Shown one piece after another: positions 25,228-31,623 of a stretch of 64,000 bases of DNA (position 1 is its first letter; each line of letters begins with the position of its first letter). Origin of the DNA: an uncultured virus (IMG/VR IMGVR_UViG_3300009164_000065) (Duplodnaviria > Heunggongvirae > Uroviricota > Caudoviricetes); IMG/VR virus record IMGVR_UViG_3300009164_000065; one strand, written 5' to 3'. The position numbers and the translations under genes were made by a program. Below the pieces are notes generated by a model. It was not told the origin of the DNA, did no database searches, and saw only the letters and a program-made list of their open reading frames with translations.

Positions 25228-25579
25228 TCAAGAAAAATTTATGAGGGCCTGCGATCAAACTGTTGGGACCCTTAACGAAGAGCAGTACAAGCTTTATCTA
25301 AAGCTAATGAGAGAAGAATTTGAAGAGCATAATGTTGCGTATGCAAATCGCAATGCCGTTGAGGAATTAGATGCTTTAATTGATATTCTTGTTGTTACCA
25401 TTGGTGCAATCCATAGTATGGGTGCCGATGCAGAAGGCGCATGGAAAGAAGTCATGAGCACTAACTTTGCTAAGATTGACAAAGAAACTGGCAAGGTCCG
25501 TAAACGTGAAGATGGTAAGGTTCTTAAACCTGTGGGTTGGAAATCCCCCGAACTTGCACAGTTTTTAACAAAGAAATAA
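25208..25579 (+). CDS. MazG-like / PRA-PH-like NTP pyrophosphohydrolase
   Basis: LMREEFEE...EELDALIDILVV...EVMSTNFAK...REDGKVLKP motif. Confidence 0.8.
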   Translation: MSNQFRDQEKFMRACDQTVGTLNEEQYKLYLKLMREEFEEHNVAYANRNAVEELDALIDILVVTIGAIHSMGADAEGAWKEVMSTNFAKIDKETGKVRKREDGKVLKPVGWKSPELAQFLTKK

Positions 25580-25584
25580 TCATA

Positions 25585-26262
25585 GTGTCTTATTGTTTAA
25601 GACCCATGCTAGTAGAGGAATTGCAACAATTGGTCGGGCATTCCTTTATTAGCATGTTTCAGTTAGAGATGGATGCATATCTTCAACCATACAGAAAGAA
25701 TGTTATTAAAGGCAGGCCTCTTAGTATGGGCAAAGAGTTATGGGAATATGCCGTAGCAGATAGTATCGTCGATGCAGAATGGTGCGGTGCTGGTAAAGGA
25801 ATTGCCGATGTTAGTCTTGGCGCAGATATTAAATGCGACGTTAAGAGTGTACAAATTATAAGCAAAACTACAACCGAAGCAAGTATGTATCAACCATTGG
25901 CATTACAAGAAGGTGCTTCAATTGACTTTACCAATAAAAATAAACAAGCATTATGGAATCTATTTGTAGGTGGTTGGTTAAAAAAGGTATCTGAAATCAA
26001 TGACTATTACATGTTAACTATTTTTCGAGATCATAAGCTCAATTGCTCATTGGCCGGATTTAAGGTAGATAACAGATCCATAAACTTTTTAGACAGCGAC
26101 TGTAATTTTACAAAAAAGTCCATGAAAATTTCTTCAATCATTGATCCTGCATTTGCCAACATCAAAGCATATTTAGGTAAAACCAGATTGGAAATTAGAA
26201 TCACAGACGCAATTTTTAATAATCCTGCGTATACCATGAACATATACAAATATGAAGCATAA
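25585..26262 (+). CDS. Putative PD-(D/E)xK restriction-endonuclease-like protein
   Basis: KELWE...GAGKGIADV......DVKS arrangement matches E...D...(D/E)xK catalytic spacing; start (GTG 25585 or ATG 25606) uncertain. Confidence 0.5.
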   Translation: MSYCLRPMLVEELQQLVGHSFISMFQLEMDAYLQPYRKNVIKGRPLSMGKELWEYAVADSIVDAEWCGAGKGIADVSLGADIKCDVKSVQIISKTTTEASMYQPLALQEGASIDFTNKNKQALWNLFVGGWLKKVSEINDYYMLTIFRDHKLNCSLAGFKVDNRSINFLDSDCNFTKKSMKISSIIDPAFANIKAYLGKTRLEIRITDAIFNNPAYTMNIYKYEA

Positions 26263-26312: not shown

Positions 26313-27335
26313 ATGACCCAATCTTTTAAAAAAGCTGTCTGCTTTACAGACATACATTTTGGCCTACGAAATAATAGTCGTAGTCACAATGACGATTGTG
26401 AAAACTTCATTAAATGGATGACACAAGAAGCCAAGAAGGAAGGTGCTGAAACTTGCATCTTCCTTGGAGATTGGCATAATAATCGTGCAAACATTAATGT
26501 AAGCACTCTAAACTATACAACATCTAACATCAAATATCTCTCAGAGAACTTTGAAAAGGTGTATATTATTATGGGTAATCACGATTTGGCCTATAGAGAA
26601 AAGCGAGAAATTAACTCACTTCCTTTTGGTGATTATTTGAATAATGTTGTACTAGTCAATGATGTGTTAACTGTTGGCGACATGACTATTGTTCCTTGGC
26701 TAGTTGGTGACGAATGGGAGACAATGAAAAAGCTCAAGAGCCGTTATGTGTTTGGACACTTTGAACTGCCTCACTTTAAAATGAACGCCATGGTAGAGAT
26801 GCCGGATCATGGAGGTTTAAACGAAGGACATTTTCCTAACCAAGAACTTGTGTTCTCTGGACATTTTCATAAGCGTCAACAACGAGGTAATGTAGTATAC
26901 ATGGGAAATTGTTTCCCGCACAACTATGCTGATGCATGGGATGACGAACGTGGATGTATGTTTTTAGAGTATGGCGGTCAGCCTGACTTTAGAATATGGC
27001 CGGCTGCACCAAAATTTAAAACTTTGACATTGACTCAGGCAATTGACCGTCATGAAGAACTGTTTGATAGTCAAACATTTGCTCGTGTTACCATTGACGT
27101 TGATATTAGTTACGAAGAGGCAAGCTATATCAAAGAACAATGGGTAACTACCTATAACATGCGCGAGCTTAGTTTAATTCCTGGTAAAACTGAGGAACAT
27201 GCAACTGAGTGGGAAGGTGGAGAAATTCTCTTTGAAAGCGTAGATGCTATTGTACTAAATCAGATTCAAGCAATTGATAGCGATGTCATTGACAAACAAA
27301 TTTTAACCAGCATATATCAAGGGCTCACACATTGA
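26313..27335 (+). CDS. gp47: Recombination endonuclease subunit, gp47/SbcD/Mre11-like
   Basis: Metallophosphoesterase motifs DIHFG, LGDW, GNHD, GHFE, SGHFH. Confidence 0.92.
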   Translation: MTQSFKKAVCFTDIHFGLRNNSRSHNDDCENFIKWMTQEAKKEGAETCIFLGDWHNNRANINVSTLNYTTSNIKYLSENFEKVYIIMGNHDLAYREKREINSLPFGDYLNNVVLVNDVLTVGDMTIVPWLVGDEWETMKKLKSRYVFGHFELPHFKMNAMVEMPDHGGLNEGHFPNQELVFSGHFHKRQQRGNVVYMGNCFPHNYADAWDDERGCMFLEYGGQPDFRIWPAAPKFKTLTLTQAIDRHEELFDSQTFARVTIDVDISYEEASYIKEQWVTTYNMRELSLIPGKTEEHATEWEGGEILFESVDAIVLNQIQAIDSDVIDKQILTSIYQGLTH

Positions 27336-29110
27336 TCACTTTTAAAAATTTAACAATCAAGAATTTTATGAGCGTGGGTAATGTTACTCAGGCTCTTCGC
27401 ATGGATCAACATAGTTTGACTCTGGTGCTTGGTAATAATCTTGATTTGGGTGGCGATGGTGCCCGTAATGGCGTTGGTAAAACTACCATGGTCAATGCAC
27501 TAAGCTATGCATTGTTTGGCGGCGCATTGACTAACATTCGTAAAGAAAATCTCATCAATAAGACCAATGGAAAAAATATGTTGGTCACTGTTGAGTTTGA
27601 AAAGAATGGCAACAAGTATATTATTGAACGTGGACGTAAACCAAACTTATTAAGATTTATTGTTGACGACCACGAAGTTAACGAAGCAGGCACAGATGAA
27701 GGTGCTGGTGAAAATCGTGTTACTCAGGAAGCGATTGATCATGTGGTTGGTATGAGTGCTGACATGTTCAAGCACATTGTTGCTCTTAACACATATACAC
27801 AGCCGTTCTTAAGTTTACGTGCAAATGAGCAACGTGACATTATTGAAGAATTGCTCGGTATCACATTATTAAGTGAAAAAGCTGACATCCTTAAAGAACA
27901 AATTAAAAACAGTAAGGAAATGATACGAGATGAGGAGTCACGTGTTAAAGCCTTACAAGAAAGTAATCAACGAGTACAGACCAGCATTGATGATCTTGAA
28001 AGACGTTCGGGTGTATGGGCTCGAAAAAAGTCTGACGATATTAGAAATTTCAAAGCAGCCATCAACGAACTAGAAGGCACAGACATTGATGCAGAGCTTG
28101 ATGCACATCGAGCATTGGTAACATTTAAAGAAAATGAAAGTCGCCTAAAGTTAGCCAATAAAGAACTTGCAAATCGTCAAAGCAATGTTAAAAAGTTAGA
28201 AGATGCACTTGCCGTAGTTTGTAAAAATTTAGAAGATATTAAAGAGCATCGTTGCCCTAGCTGTGGACAAGGTGTGCATGATGTACAGCACGATCAAATG
28301 ACTGCATCAGCACAAGAATCAGTTTCTATAACTGAAAAGGCTCTTCGAGATGAACATGAGTTGCTGGCTCAAGCAATTTATATGGCACAAAGTATTGGCC
28401 AACTCGGAAACAGGCCAACTACAAAATATATCAGTGTTGAGGATGCTGCCGCTCATAAAAATAATTTAGAAAATATCAAGAAACAACTTGAAATCAAGAA
28501 TCAAGAAGATGATCCTTATCAAGAACAAATTGAAGCAATGCGTAACACTGCCCTTGCTGTGGTCAGCTGGGATGAGATTAATCGTGTAAGTAAACTTCTA
28601 GAACATCAAGAATTCCTGCTAAAACTGCTAACTAGTAAGGATTCGTTTGTTCGAAAACGTATTATTGAACAAAATCTGGCATACTTAAATCACAGATTGG
28701 GTCAATATTTAGATAGGTTACAATTGCCGCACCAAGTAATTTTTAAAAGCGATTTAGAAGTGGATATTAGTCAACTTGGGCAAAGCTTTGATTTTGATAA
28801 TCTGAGCCGCGGCGAAAGAAATAGGTTAATTCTAGCACTAAGCTGGAGTTTCCGAGATGTGTATGAAAGCTTTACAGAGCCAATGAATCTTATGTTCATT
28901 GACGAGCTAGTTGATTCTGGGATGGATAGTGTAGGCATTGAAAACTCAATGTCTGTACTAAAATCCATGGGAAGAGAGATGAATCGCAATATTTTCCTTA
29001 TTTCGCATAGGGATGAACTGGCAAGTAGGGTAAATAATGTACTCATGGTAGTCAAACAGAACGGATTTACCATGCTGGACACCGATACACAGGTGAATGA
29101 AATTACATAA
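27332..29110 (+). CDS. gp46: Recombination ATPase subunit, gp46/SbcC/Rad50-like
   Basis: KNFMSVGN, Walker A NGVGKTT, CPSC zinc hook, LSRGE signature, Walker B FIDE, ISH. Confidence 0.93.
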   Translation: MITFKNLTIKNFMSVGNVTQALRMDQHSLTLVLGNNLDLGGDGARNGVGKTTMVNALSYALFGGALTNIRKENLINKTNGKNMLVTVEFEKNGNKYIIERGRKPNLLRFIVDDHEVNEAGTDEGAGENRVTQEAIDHVVGMSADMFKHIVALNTYTQPFLSLRANEQRDIIEELLGITLLSEKADILKEQIKNSKEMIRDEESRVKALQESNQRVQTSIDDLERRSGVWARKKSDDIRNFKAAINELEGTDIDAELDAHRALVTFKENESRLKLANKELANRQSNVKKLEDALAVVCKNLEDIKEHRCPSCGQGVHDVQHDQMTASAQESVSITEKALRDEHELLAQAIYMAQSIGQLGNRPTTKYISVEDAAAHKNNLENIKKQLEIKNQEDDPYQEQIEAMRNTALAVVSWDEINRVSKLLEHQEFLLKLLTSKDSFVRKRIIEQNLAYLNHRLGQYLDRLQLPHQVIFKSDLEVDISQLGQSFDFDNLSRGERNRLILALSWSFRDVYESFTEPMNLMFIDELVDSGMDSVGIENSMSVLKSMGREMNRNIFLISHRDELASRVNNVLMVVKQNGFTMLDTDTQVNEIT

Positions 29111-29122
29111 AGGAAAATTAAT

Positions 29123-29362
29123 ATGTCTACTCCAACTCATGCCGCACTTGTTGCTCTATTAGATACATACAAGGCAGAAAGCGAAAAGTTTAACAATGGT
29201 GCTGTCAAGGCCGCTGGAAGCCGTGCAAAACGTGCTCTACGCGACATTACAAAAATGGCTAAGGTTCGTAAGGATGAAATCCACACGATCACTAATCCAG
29301 AAGGTTCCGCTCGTCAAGCTGAGAAAAAGGCTGCTCGCGTTGCCGCTAAGATTGCCAAATAA
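29123..29362 (+). CDS. Small basic histone-H1-like (Hc1-like) DNA-binding protein
   Basis: EKF..G.VKAAGSRA..AL..I.K.AK..K.EI pattern, Lys/Ala/Arg-rich; AAGGA RBS. Confidence 0.65.
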   Translation: MSTPTHAALVALLDTYKAESEKFNNGAVKAAGSRAKRALRDITKMAKVRKDEIHTITNPEGSARQAEKKAARVAAKIAK

Positions 29363-29377
29363 TCATTAACTTAGTTA

Positions 29378-29806
29378 ATGACTTGGTCATATCAAGGCAC
29401 TGAAGTTATGGACTTACCCGACGACACCGTCGGGTTTGTCTACTTAATAACAAACACAGTTGACGGAAGAAAGTATGTAGGTAAAAAGTTAGCTAAGTTT
29501 GCTAAAACCTCCTACAAGGTAGTAAAGCTTAAAAATGGTACCAAGAAGAAGAAAAAGATTCGTAGCAAAATTGATTCTGATTGGCGAGAGTATTATGGCT
29601 CAAACGATCACTTAAACAAAGATGTAGTAACCTTAGGCAAAGAAAAATTTACACGCGAAATATTACATTACTGCAATTCAAAAGCAGTGTGTTCGTATAT
29701 TGAAGCTCGAGAACAATTTGAAAGAAAAGTTTTAGAGTCAACTGATTATTATAACGGTCAAATTTCGGTTCGCGTACATGGCTCACATATCATAAACAAA
29801 CTATAA
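29378..29806 (+). CDS. Minimal GIY-YIG-family endonuclease
   Basis: GFVYLITN..DGRKYVGKK, YYGS, FTREIL, E...Q, YYN motifs; 142 aa with a poly-Lys insert, no separate DNA-binding domain. Confidence 0.8.
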   Translation: MTWSYQGTEVMDLPDDTVGFVYLITNTVDGRKYVGKKLAKFAKTSYKVVKLKNGTKKKKKIRSKIDSDWREYYGSNDHLNKDVVTLGKEKFTREILHYCNSKAVCSYIEAREQFERKVLESTDYYNGQISVRVHGSHIINKL

Positions 29807-29864
29807 CACCGGCTCCTTTAGTTCCCATAGCGTCAATCGCACACTAACACAATACTCCATCTCT

Positions 29865-30250
29865 ACCGATAGGCTTCGCGCAGGCCGGTTGTAATGCGCC
29901 CTAAACCTGGACACACGTATCGCAGGGACGGAAATTGTGCGCGGTAGCACAGACTTATCACCACTATCCTTAACAGGACGTAAGTCAAACGGTATGAAAC
30001 TGGCTTGGTGTAAGAATTGCAAGACCAAAATGAGTAGGCTCTGTTGAACTATTACAACCTACAAGAATACAAGAACAGTTTGGATTGTTGTTGTGTTCTG
30101 CGTTATTCAAGTCTAGTGTAAAAAGGTACAGCGTAACCGCCTTTACTGTGCAAACAGTTGCTTAATCCAAAGTGGCATAGGGGTCTGAGTCAAGAACCAA
30201 ATGTTTTCCTTAGCCTGTCAAGGCTAAGTGTGACTAGATAATCTAAGTCA
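29865..30250 (+). ncRNA. Candidate large structured non-coding RNA (family not recognised)
   Basis: Largest non-coding gap in window, relatively GC-rich, about ten contiguous helices with G-U pairs on the + strand and a possible pseudoknot. Confidence 0.6.
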
Positions 30251-30373
30251 AGTAATCATAATGTTAGTAAAATTTAAATCATATATCTGTATAAACAATA
30301 CAAAATATAAACTGTAAAAATACTAATTAAAAAATGAAATGAATGAGCAATCACGAAGTGATGCGATATTCAA

Positions 30374-30391
30374 GGGCGAAGTACTTCGCCC
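30374..30391. repeat. Perfect 18-bp GC-rich palindrome between convergent transcription units
   Basis: GGGCGAAGTACTTCGCCC. Confidence 0.85.
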
Positions 30392-30406: not shown

Positions 30407-30625
30407 TTATCTTCTAGCAATACCTTTCTTACCATACATTGTTTCTGTACGTTCTTTAATTGTTTCACTAAGGACTAATCTTTCTAAATATGTCATGTCC
30501 CATATGGTCTCTGGATTAATAGAACCCCATACACTTAGTTCTGACACTTCCCTTATTAAGGCTCTTGAGTCTGCTTCTATACCCTCGATAAAGCGAGCAA
30601 TGCTGGCTCTATCAAGACCTAACAT
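30407..30625 (-). CDS. Small baseplate hub assembly protein (gp51-position), possibly the frameshift extension of the upstream gene
   Basis: 72-aa ORF overlapping gp26-like stop (TGATG); W.M...ER...I.ER pattern like tail chaperone extensions. Confidence 0.6.
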   Translation of the reverse strand: MLGLDRASIARFIEGIEADSRALIREVSELSVWGSINPETIWDMTYLERLVLSETIKERTETMYGKKGIARR

Positions 30626-31530
30626 CAAGAGCCGATTTCGAAAAAACTTGTTGGGTCAAACAACATGTCACTGGTGTAGTCTTCACCGCAATAATCACAA
30701 TGTACCTTAATTGTTTTAATGATACCATATTCGTTAAAACGTTTTACTTCTTGATCTAGTCGTTCATGACTTGCTCGATCTAAATTCTTAACCCATTCAG
30801 CGATATGGCTTGGGTTTGATACTTCTGTACCGTCGGGTAACATAACGCTAATGATACATTCACCCATTGTTTCCTGACTCAATGATACTAAATCATTGTA
30901 ACCCTTGTTGGCAATTGCAGCCTTTTGATCAATTGTCATTCTTTCGTCTACTTCAGCCGCCTGTAATTGACGCATGGTAGTAAATTGCACACGTAACAAT
31001 TTACTTTGTGCTTCCAGTGTGTATGGTTTTAAATTTACTTTGATACCAGAACCTAATGTAACAATGCCAACGTCATCGGGTACATTACGTAGTGTACCTA
31101 ACACACTACCAAGTCCAACAACCACATGTTGACTTTTATTTTGATCTTTACTTTTACTTTGATTACATCCGTGATGAATGTTCAAGCTCATATCGTCACC
31201 ATAGCTGGTCATACGCATTGCAACTAAAATTGCATCAACATCAGTTGTTGGAATTTCATTTACGTTTGCAATGTCTGGACATACAGAAGTTATAACATGC
31301 TTCAATGCTTCGCCGTTGAGCAACGAATCTGGATTTTTTAAAATCAGCTCATCTTTAGCAGTCATTGGATAAACAGCCAATTCTCCGTTGTCGGAAAGCT
31401 TTGGCGGCGTTTTATAAAATCTCCCCTGGCTTGGAAGTTCAATATAGGTACCTGGTCGACGGTAATATTGTGACAACGGATTTGCCGAAGCTGACTTTAT
31501 TGGTCTATTAAGTGGGTTGGAGTTATCCAT
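30625..31530 (-). CDS. gp26: Baseplate hub assembly chaperone, T4 gp26-like
   Basis: NPL..Y.R.P..YI.LPS.G..Y, VYPMTAKDE, D.DAIL.A.R..SYG, C-terminal C..C and F.PTSFF; likely start MDNSNP after AAGGA. Confidence 0.75.
   Translation of the reverse strand: MDNSNPLNRPIKSASANPLSQYYRRPGTYIELPSQGRFYKTPPKLSDNGELAVYPMTAKDELILKNPDSLLNGEALKHVITSVCPDIANVNEIPTTDVDAILVAMRMTSYGDDMSLNIHHGCNQSKSKDQNKSQHVVVGLGSVLGTLRNVPDDVGIVTLGSGIKVNLKPYTLEAQSKLLRVQFTTMRQLQAAEVDERMTIDQKAAIANKGYNDLVSLSQETMGECIISVMLPDGTEVSNPSHIAEWVKNLDRASHERLDQEVKRFNEYGIIKTIKVHCDYCGEDYTSDMLFDPTSFFEIGS
30640..30646 (-). other. Putative -1 ribosomal frameshift heptamer T TTT TTC
   Basis: In-frame X XXY YYZ heptamer 5 codons before the stop; -1 frame is the downstream ORF. 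Confidence 0.55.
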
Positions 31531-31623
31531 GTAGTTAATCCTTGTTGGTAAATAGGCTATAGGTGCCAATTTATATTAAATGTATTTATGTGGTGTTTTA
31601 ACCAATATTAGGACCAAATCTGA

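Follow-up and report, generated by a model that had tools for sequence, protein, structure and literature searches.

The RNA motif Polynucleobacter-1 (Rfam RF01718) was introduced by Weinberg et al. in 2010 with 16 members, from Burkholderiales and fresh water, and is described there as a probable RNA that is probably cis-regulatory (PMC2864571). In ColE1 and the ColE1-like replicons of Vibrionaceae, as they are described in PMC5043065 and PMC5703827, a folded transcript (RNA II in ColE1) forms a persistent hybrid with the DNA; cleavage of this transcript yields the primer, while helicase is loaded on the displaced strand. In the OMEGA systems (TnpB-reRNA, IscB-omegaRNA/HEARO and RAGATH-18), a small nuclease lies beside a large pseudoknotted RNA. 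The locus presented here invites comparison with all three, as it has a nuclease gene followed by a long folded RNA. The 5' third of this RNA was already known as RF01718; its full length, its twin boxes and its carriers are new. No account of the full RNA, the boxes, the bacterial islands that carry it, or the resolvase swap beside it was found in the open-access literature.

The window, i.e., the whole stretch of 64,000 nucleotides that was analysed (IMG/VR record IMGVR_UViG_3300009164_000065), is a piece of a T4-like phage genome, relatives of which are found on IMG/VR records of up to 355 kb. On the + strand, a gp55-like sigma factor, gp47 and gp46 (the SbcC-like recombination nuclease subunit, 27332-29110; phrog_77, phrog_100, phrog_12791) are followed by a 79-aa Hc1-like protein (29123-29362; PF07432, 27.1 bits) and a single-domain GIY-YIG nuclease of 142 aa (29378-29806; PF19835, 113 bits; phrog_447). 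Next comes a gap, past which lie the convergent T4 baseplate-hub gene (30625-31569, - strand; PF12322, phrog_150) and the portal gene. A first-pass annotation, made from the letters and a list of ORFs, had pointed out that the gaps of this DNA are mostly below 150 nt and that about 600 nt after the nuclease are free of credible ORFs. Both statements were borne out: at an ORF cut-off of 80 aa, 37 of 42 gaps are shorter than 150 nt and the gap after the GIY-YIG gene is the largest of the window, with 600 nt up to a 73-aa minus-strand ORF that ends at 30407. Two minor features are recorded here for the same region. An ORF of 241 aa (25537-26262), located between a MazG-like gene and gp47, has no Pfam or PHROG match, and two hairpins with perfect 8-bp stems, of which the first spans the GIY-YIG start codon (29363-29381) and the second lies within the gene (29416-29435), possibly serve in translation control.

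The gap encodes a folded RNA of about 390 nt on the + strand, at about 29863-30252, its ends being placed by conservation. RF01718, the sole Rfam match in the whole window, covers 29873-30012 (+) with model positions 1-141 and a score of 94.7 bits (gathering threshold, 37), while the remaining ~250 nt are without an Rfam match even at E values up to 10. The first-pass annotation had not recognised the RNA family and overlooked RF01718 in the 5' 140 nt; the Rfam match that would count against its idea of an undescribed system exists for this 5' third. The RNA is indeed some three times longer than the catalogued fragment, and in the regions downstream of 80 GIY-YIG relatives, conservation reaches far past the Rfam model. 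Spanning about one third of the RNA, the model is without the four pseudoknots, the twin boxes and the downstream DNA hairpins described below, and many homologues with different 5' domains evade it (10 of 20 loci match; the phage records G007 and G010 do not). Homologues were found in records titled Polynucleobacter, Limnohabitans and Comamonadaceae, which fits the freshwater Burkholderiales range of RF01718; blastn of the RNA against named phages gave no match. In a lake metatranscriptome (X1; assembled contigs, low depth), pieces of the neighbouring genes were found and no piece of the RNA, a result that speaks neither for nor against its expression. Among other candidates considered, the Rfam models of group I and II introns, RNase P, cobalamin riboswitch and T-box do not match, and likenesses noticed by eye to K-loops, group IIC domain 5, RNase P, T-box and cobalamin motifs had no Rfam support.

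Folding energy taken alone was unremarkable, the weak z values being -1.32 on the + strand and +0.13 on the - strand. Covariation was examined in two alignments, namely A1, consisting of 30 window-type RNAs, and A2, consisting of 86 of the 96 non-redundant type-I RNAs, from which ten with long insertions were excluded. In A1, a 74-pair structure built from the window was 87.9% paired, with 41 pairs showing two-sided changes. None of 500 shuffles equalled its covariation, and slid versions were 34-48% paired, although the structure, drawn from one A1 row, has an advantage over these. The covariation across A1 thus backs the structured + strand RNA that had been noticed from a single sequence. 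Of the individual helices drawn at that stage, those at 29935-52 (P3), 30034-62, 30122-44, 30145-58 and 30209-28, the three-way junction at 29959-30010 and the outer part of 30064-99 were retained; those at 29865-89 and at the very end were not. The former is 65-70% paired, whereas 29863-68 pairs 100% with 29942-47; the latter is not kept in A1 or A2 by eye, and its 3' arm is one of the two boxes. Another of these helices, at 29906-26, is 43-65% paired and poorly aligned in A1.

Covariation also documents a compact core with four pseudoknots, all on the + strand. Pseudoknot 0 (29863-68 with 29942-47) is 100% paired in the 30 rows and pseudoknot 1 (29991-93 with 30024-26) is 91% paired, each with two pairs that show two-sided change. 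Pseudoknot 2 (30079-86 with 30164-71) had already been proposed in the first-pass annotation. It was confirmed, with 7-11 bp in all 30 rows (mean 8.4, versus 6.0 for cross-paired rows) and 97-100% pairing over six columns of A2; its column-wise pairing in A1 is only 59% because the register is offset. Pseudoknot 3 (30102-05 with 30134-37) is 98% paired in A1 and shows two-sided changes in A2. Outside the core, the hairpin between the two boxes (30209-30228, +) is 97.6% paired.

The nuclease and the RNA had been read as possible partners, the RNA guiding or scaffolding the GIY-YIG protein in the manner of TnpB or IscB. Within the clade, adjacency is strong, and the protein bears a basic hairpin, both of which speak for such a system. 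When the protein was searched first, 73 of 80 loci carried the RNA, three were without it within 2.5-3 kb, and four were too short to tell; in four of the 73, a gene of ~1 kb is inserted before the RNA. When the RNA was searched first, with patterns that came from GIY-YIG-linked RNAs, the 1.2 kb upstream contained GIY-YIG in 119, PDDEXK_15 in 18 and neither in six of 143 loci among the matches listed. It is to be noted that locus counts include near-identical contigs unless marked non-redundant. PDDEXK_15 (phrog_244), labelled a RusA-like Holliday-junction resolvase by PHROGs, is unrelated to GIY-YIG and sits in the same slot after gp46. None of the loci tested had both, and whole records contained either GIY-YIG only (G007, G008, G009, G011) or PDDEXK only (G010). 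The swap argues against a partnership, since the RNA is also borne by 52 of the 72 PDDEXK loci that extend 1.5 kb downstream and near-identical RNAs are found behind either nuclease, e.g., in the window and in L221. Moreover, in G012 and G013, both complete records, some 140-150 kb separate the RNA from the PDDEXK gene, and no nuclease is found in the flanks of the bacterial islands described below. Five named phages with GIY-YIG, out of 458 with a relative of the protein, have no RF01718 match, their gene being packed among ORFs with no room for the RNA. Five RNA loci without an adjacent nuclease have no GIY-YIG in their records, although these are only 7-26% complete. Two RNA copies each occur in G010 and G013, and one in G007. 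The variable segment that a guide RNA might carry was also looked for, and no variable end of guide length stands out in A1 or A2. Thus, small nuclease and large pseudoknotted RNA lie side by side here as in OMEGA, but no obligate coupling, variable guide or transposon ends were seen. A role of GIY-YIG as RNA partner is not supported, and a guided nuclease is the least credible reading of the locus, to be regarded as very improbable.

Some local variation was seen around this slot. The ~1-kb gene is inserted after GIY-YIG in L006, L019, L033, L035 and L369, and a small ORF or spacer of ~250 nt lies between nuclease and RNA in L012, L036, L040, L060 and L073. By eye, the ORF lists show a similar-looking small helical ORF upstream of either nuclease type, and an RNase H-like gene downstream of the PDDEXK gene in L093, L347 and L391, which in L093 is the last long ORF ahead of the RNA.

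The GIY-YIG protein itself was modelled from an alignment (pLDDT 97), as the single-sequence AlphaFold model reached only pLDDT 42. The model shows no domain other than GIY-YIG, which has a long basic hairpin, in agreement with the first-pass view that these 142 aa are a catalytic domain only; the 'poly-Lys insert' mentioned there is, by contrast, a family-wide beta-hairpin (residues 40-66). The best structural match was I-TevI (Z 8.4, rmsd 2.7, 82 aligned), followed by UvrC (5.5) and EndoII (5.3); Foldseek gave no match at E 0.001, and a PDB sequence search gave no real match. Residues Y22, Y33, G35, E109 and N126 are invariant in 93 sequences, 36 close relatives have a mean identity of 81%, and each record searched has one copy. 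A homodimer was predicted with a score of 0.73, against 0.00 for the best of three controls, with a pLDDT of ~91 and agreement of the runs in all contacts; 20 of 30 solved dimers come up to this mark, as against 1 of 23 single chains, although these counts apply only roughly to a prediction from an alignment of our own. The fold is common to T4 SegE-type GIY-YIG proteins (PF19835), the catalytic domain of I-TevI and T4 endonuclease II. Seg-family homing endonucleases, however, have a DNA-recognition domain, which the window protein lacks; they are also patchy and optional, whereas the GIY-YIG gene has a fixed slot and, in the records tested, is replaced and not lost. The single copy, the fixed slot and the swap for a PD-(D/E)XK enzyme thus amount to housekeeping behaviour and not to that of a homing endonuclease. 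All nine phage records examined from the clade lack endonuclease VII (PF02945), and endonuclease VII domains scored above the cut-off in one of the five named phages. Because of the slot swap with phrog_244 and the absence of PF02945, we consider it likely that the predicted dimer is a branched-DNA or Holliday-junction resolvase of the gp46/47 module, replacing T4 endonuclease VII. The label 'NAD synthetase', given to phrog_447 in many phage records, is contradicted by the GIY-YIG fold. Relatives occur in 458 named phage records and, at 50% identity, form 2007 clusters; phrog_447 (so labelled in many cyanophage records) is a candidate for the missing resolvase of those T4-like phages that have no endonuclease VII.

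The most distinctive feature of the RNA had been overlooked in the first-pass annotation. Near its 3' end, the same 7-nt sequence occurs twice, as box 1 (30188-30194, +) and box 2 (30246-30252, +). The boxes vary among genomes, and within an RNA they are identical in 86 of 86 A2 rows, against a mean of 16 and a maximum of 29 in 10,000 shuffles. When the tree was inferred with the boxes removed, the minimum numbers of changes at their four variable positions were 21, 7, 14 and 15; those for positions 1 and 2 are near the shuffled counts. The joint count for both boxes was the same as the count for a single box, and therefore each change hit both. At least 43 whole-box changes took place among the 86 related RNAs, all four bases occur in the concerted changes, and single-base switches were seen between near-identical phages. 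In a wider census, 120 of 143 distinct units were fully identical, with 22 variants and 79% purine; the parser takes the best-matching pair of boxes, and some of the 23 non-identical units are mis-parses. For a box, the only strongly covarying column in A2 is the other box. The duplication in fact comprises a whole 22-nt unit (a GUGAC-like motif, 10-12 nt and the box), the motif upstream of the box showing concerted change as well, though less of it. Within 2.5 kb, no fixed position was found to hold a sequence complementary to the box. A wobble-direction test gave few mismatches in the clean parse, mostly A>T at position 1, while the loose parse leaned to G in box 1 and A in box 2, a lean inflated by register shifts. 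Use of the boxes as genome-wide promoters was also considered and rejected: the 64 kb of the window contain 12 copies of its box, counted over both strands, but only two of the longer unit, and no enrichment was seen in G007 either.

Three ways of keeping two boxes identical have to be weighed. First, the boxes may pair together in the fold as a parallel, like-with-like duplex, purely structural in an RNA that is otherwise regulatory. This would need no outside partner and would suit purine-rich boxes, but such duplexes are rare in RNA and the concerted changes involve all four bases, which makes the idea improbable. Second, the boxes may be twin cut or jump sites of a ribozyme or template-jump RNA, with which a 50-60-nt hairpin is excised, circularised or recopied. 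Direct repeats serve jumps in some reverse-transcriptase defence RNAs, and exact repeats around a hairpin would suit such a jump; likewise, the core, given its four pseudoknots and the many unpaired bases that never vary, has a catalytic look. However, a reverse transcriptase (RVT_1, PF00078) was found in 0 of 5 phage records, four of which are at least 90% complete, in a search that detected its controls; the RNA has no internal guide complementary to the box, and no Rfam ribozyme matches at E up to 10. This possibility is therefore doubtful in our judgement, if somewhat less so than the duplex. Third, since the boxes are identical and have no visible partner, the partner of box 1 may be the template strand at box 2, which is always complementary. 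Such template pairing would explain at once why the boxes are identical and why no complement is found nearby.

The DNA behind the RNA is also unusual in composition and structure. An AT-rich stretch (30256-30340; 86%, versus 61% for the window) might act as an unwinding element; it is much shorter in many homologues. Two DNA-type hairpins follow at 30340-30391 (+), one with a C-GAA-G triloop (30350-62) and the other a perfect 7-bp palindrome (30374-91), without a U-tract, and no intrinsic terminator was found after the RNA in the window. Of 134 non-redundant loci, 127 have a perfect hairpin no farther than 220 nt from box 2 on its 3' side, compared to 6% in shuffles. Its triloop is C-GNA-G on the RNA strand in 62 of 94 cases and on the other strand in three. 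In the 347 kb of record G007, a single such hairpin has a stem of at least 7, and it directly follows the RNA. DNA mini-hairpins are described for the G4 and ssiA priming sites and the N4 promoters, and as far less stable in RNA form (PMC13037366). Since A-rich runs precede the stems, these may also function as a terminator on the minus strand.

The RNA is not confined to the giant freshwater phages of this clade. A scan of bacterial genomes listed 83 pattern matches, of which 33 were true by profile search: three phage contigs inside bins, and 30 copies of one island type. The three (L442, L449 and L451) are contigs of the phage clade that were binned into bacterial genome records, and hence the titles of these records are not to be read as hosts. 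In all 30 islands, TAAATA, the T4-type late promoter motif, stands upstream on the RNA strand, mostly ~50 nt before the RNA; 29 have a divergent DUF6641 gene, and neither nuclease was found in the flanks (up to 3 kb) of any. Longer island regions contain a large and a small tyrosine recombinase and further TAAATA-led small genes, along with tRNA genes at the edge of some and a clamp-loader-like AAA protein in some; capsid or terminase genes were seen neither among the ORF clusters nor by eye in the regions examined. The island-type RNA pattern had no match in viral contigs. DUF6641 itself, on which no publications were found in the open-access literature, is present in 61/121 and 33/121 genomes of two freshwater genera. 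Overall, these small tRNA-linked islands probably replicate upon infection by giant T4-like phages. They resemble the PLE and PICMI-like phage satellites, which lack packaging genes, in being small, integrase-bearing, near tRNA genes and equipped with phage-type promoters; they differ in DUF6641, the two tyrosine recombinases, the AAA protein of some, and the RNA or Rep-like gene behind TAAATA.

This last alternative was seen when 65 DUF6641 loci were compared. Behind TAAATA, 15 of them have the RNA (ten as full matches, five as divergent forms that keep the twin boxes) and six have a Rep-like gene in this slot; none has both. RNA and gene share one physical slot, and 15 versus 6 of 65 are too few for significant exclusion. 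The remaining loci have other ORFs in the slot, are too short, or have no slot. One further ORF family, behind a non-coding leader, fills ~17 slots, and in view of these other ORFs the slot is not solely for replication. The proteins of the six are Rep-like (HUH) as judged from HxH and YxxK motifs and from leads in the ESM Atlas, where look-alikes with PF23343 REP_ORF2-G2P were retrieved (features 0.96-0.97; structure TM 0.66; PF23343 on 16-39% of members); searches of Pfam, PHROGs and PDB did not name them. A GCGAAGC mini-hairpin follows the gene in four of the six.

Several other observations were made on the islands. The AAA protein (e.g., L507:4438-5115; phrog_168) is clamp-loader-like, and the islands that encode it have late-type promoters. 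As the T4 clamp is required for late transcription, the protein may help or hinder this process. Small island genes (e.g., L495:1722-2153) and phage genes after the RNA have a common M-R/K-I-x-E-I start behind TAAATA, which suggests a shared late-gene or head-targeting signal. A second non-coding element of ~200-250 nt, repeat-rich and apparently pairing, lies after TAAATA and ahead of an ORF family of 150-210 aa in L528, L530, L533, L537, L550, L559 and others. Lastly, L583 has a long non-coding stretch after TAAATA with pieces like the 5' domain of the RNA, and no match to the RNA profile.

The islands bear on two further explanations. One is a trans-acting scaffold or decoy, whose two similar modules would each hold a copy of one and the same protein or nucleic acid, and which islands would use to interfere with the phage or exploit it. 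The duplication of the whole 22-nt unit, with its weaker concerted change upstream, would be natural for such an RNA, as would the late-promoter control in islands, which suits an infection-triggered RNA, and stand-alone copies with promoters of their own. Against this, the many whole-box changes and single-base switches are hard to square with the co-evolution of a protein, and the strand-specific DNA hairpin and the Rep-like slot alternative are left unexplained. We regard a scaffold or decoy as unlikely, while granting it more weight than the other rivals. The other explanation is that the RNA forms part of a signal for DNA packaging or genome ends, which islands have copied so as to be packaged by a helper phage. 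The islands have no capsid or terminase genes in the regions examined and a late-type promoter stands ahead of their RNA, as this would predict. However, stand-alone phage copies have sigma-70 promoters, the alternative gene in the slot is Rep-like and not terminase-like, and T4-type headful packaging is not known to involve RNA; this explanation seems a poor one.

When considered together, the fold, the boxes, the promoter motifs, the hairpins and the two slot swaps fit a cis-acting replication-initiation RNA that would work like ColE1 RNA II, with box 1 pairing to the template at box 2. This is the reading that we favour, at a strength slightly short of an even chance. A replication primer RNA was also among the options offered in the first-pass annotation, and is preferred here for the twin boxes, the downstream hairpins and the island slot. 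Transcription would be by read-through from the gp46 operon; stand-alone phage copies would instead use a sigma-70 promoter of their own, and islands a T4-type late promoter. Two stand-alone copies (L103 and L429) indeed have, by eye, a consensus-like sigma-70 promoter just upstream. Ahead of the phage GIY-YIG gene, TAAATA has no conserved place (15 of 72). The RNA would then fold into its compact four-pseudoknot core and present box 1, which would pair with the template strand at box 2 just behind the RNA polymerase and nucleate a persistent RNA-DNA hybrid. On the displaced + strand, the GNA mini-hairpins would form and load primase or helicase, and the RNA would be cut to yield the primer. 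Islands with the same RNA behind a late promoter would replicate when a giant T4-like phage infects.

The logic proposed is that of ColE1 RNA II, from folded transcript to hybrid to primer; in ColE1, a G-tract pairs with a C-tract of the template. The RNA is not a member of that class, however, as it has no sequence or Rfam likeness to ColE1 RNA II or RNA I at E up to 10; ColE1 replicons are plasmids, whereas this RNA resides in giant T4-like phages and chromosomal islands and has twin, variable 7-nt boxes. Some findings speak against a replication role, namely the other ORFs in the island slot and the presence of two RNA copies each in G010 and G013. In G007, the GC skew follows gene direction and does not switch at the RNA. 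A broader proposal, more tentative than the ColE1-like mechanism itself, is that the RNA may be a new class of replication initiator, which finds its own template via a changeable 7-nt address, primes giant T4-like phage genomes and was captured by late-promoter-triggered satellite islands as a stand-in for Rep that needs no protein, with a fold that may also cut itself into the primer. If true, RNA-based origin firing of the ColE1 kind would extend to giant lytic phages and to the common DUF6641 island family. In any case, a motif left orphan since 2010 is now known at full length and with its carriers, together with a proposed function that is open to experiment; the twin boxes are well suited to a clear-cut test, and the island copies lie in records titled as cultured strains. 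As a separate observation on G007, which has 27 tRNAs in the record, its contig C1 carries a tRNA cluster at 102805-116353 with a permuted tmRNA at 110821-111310.
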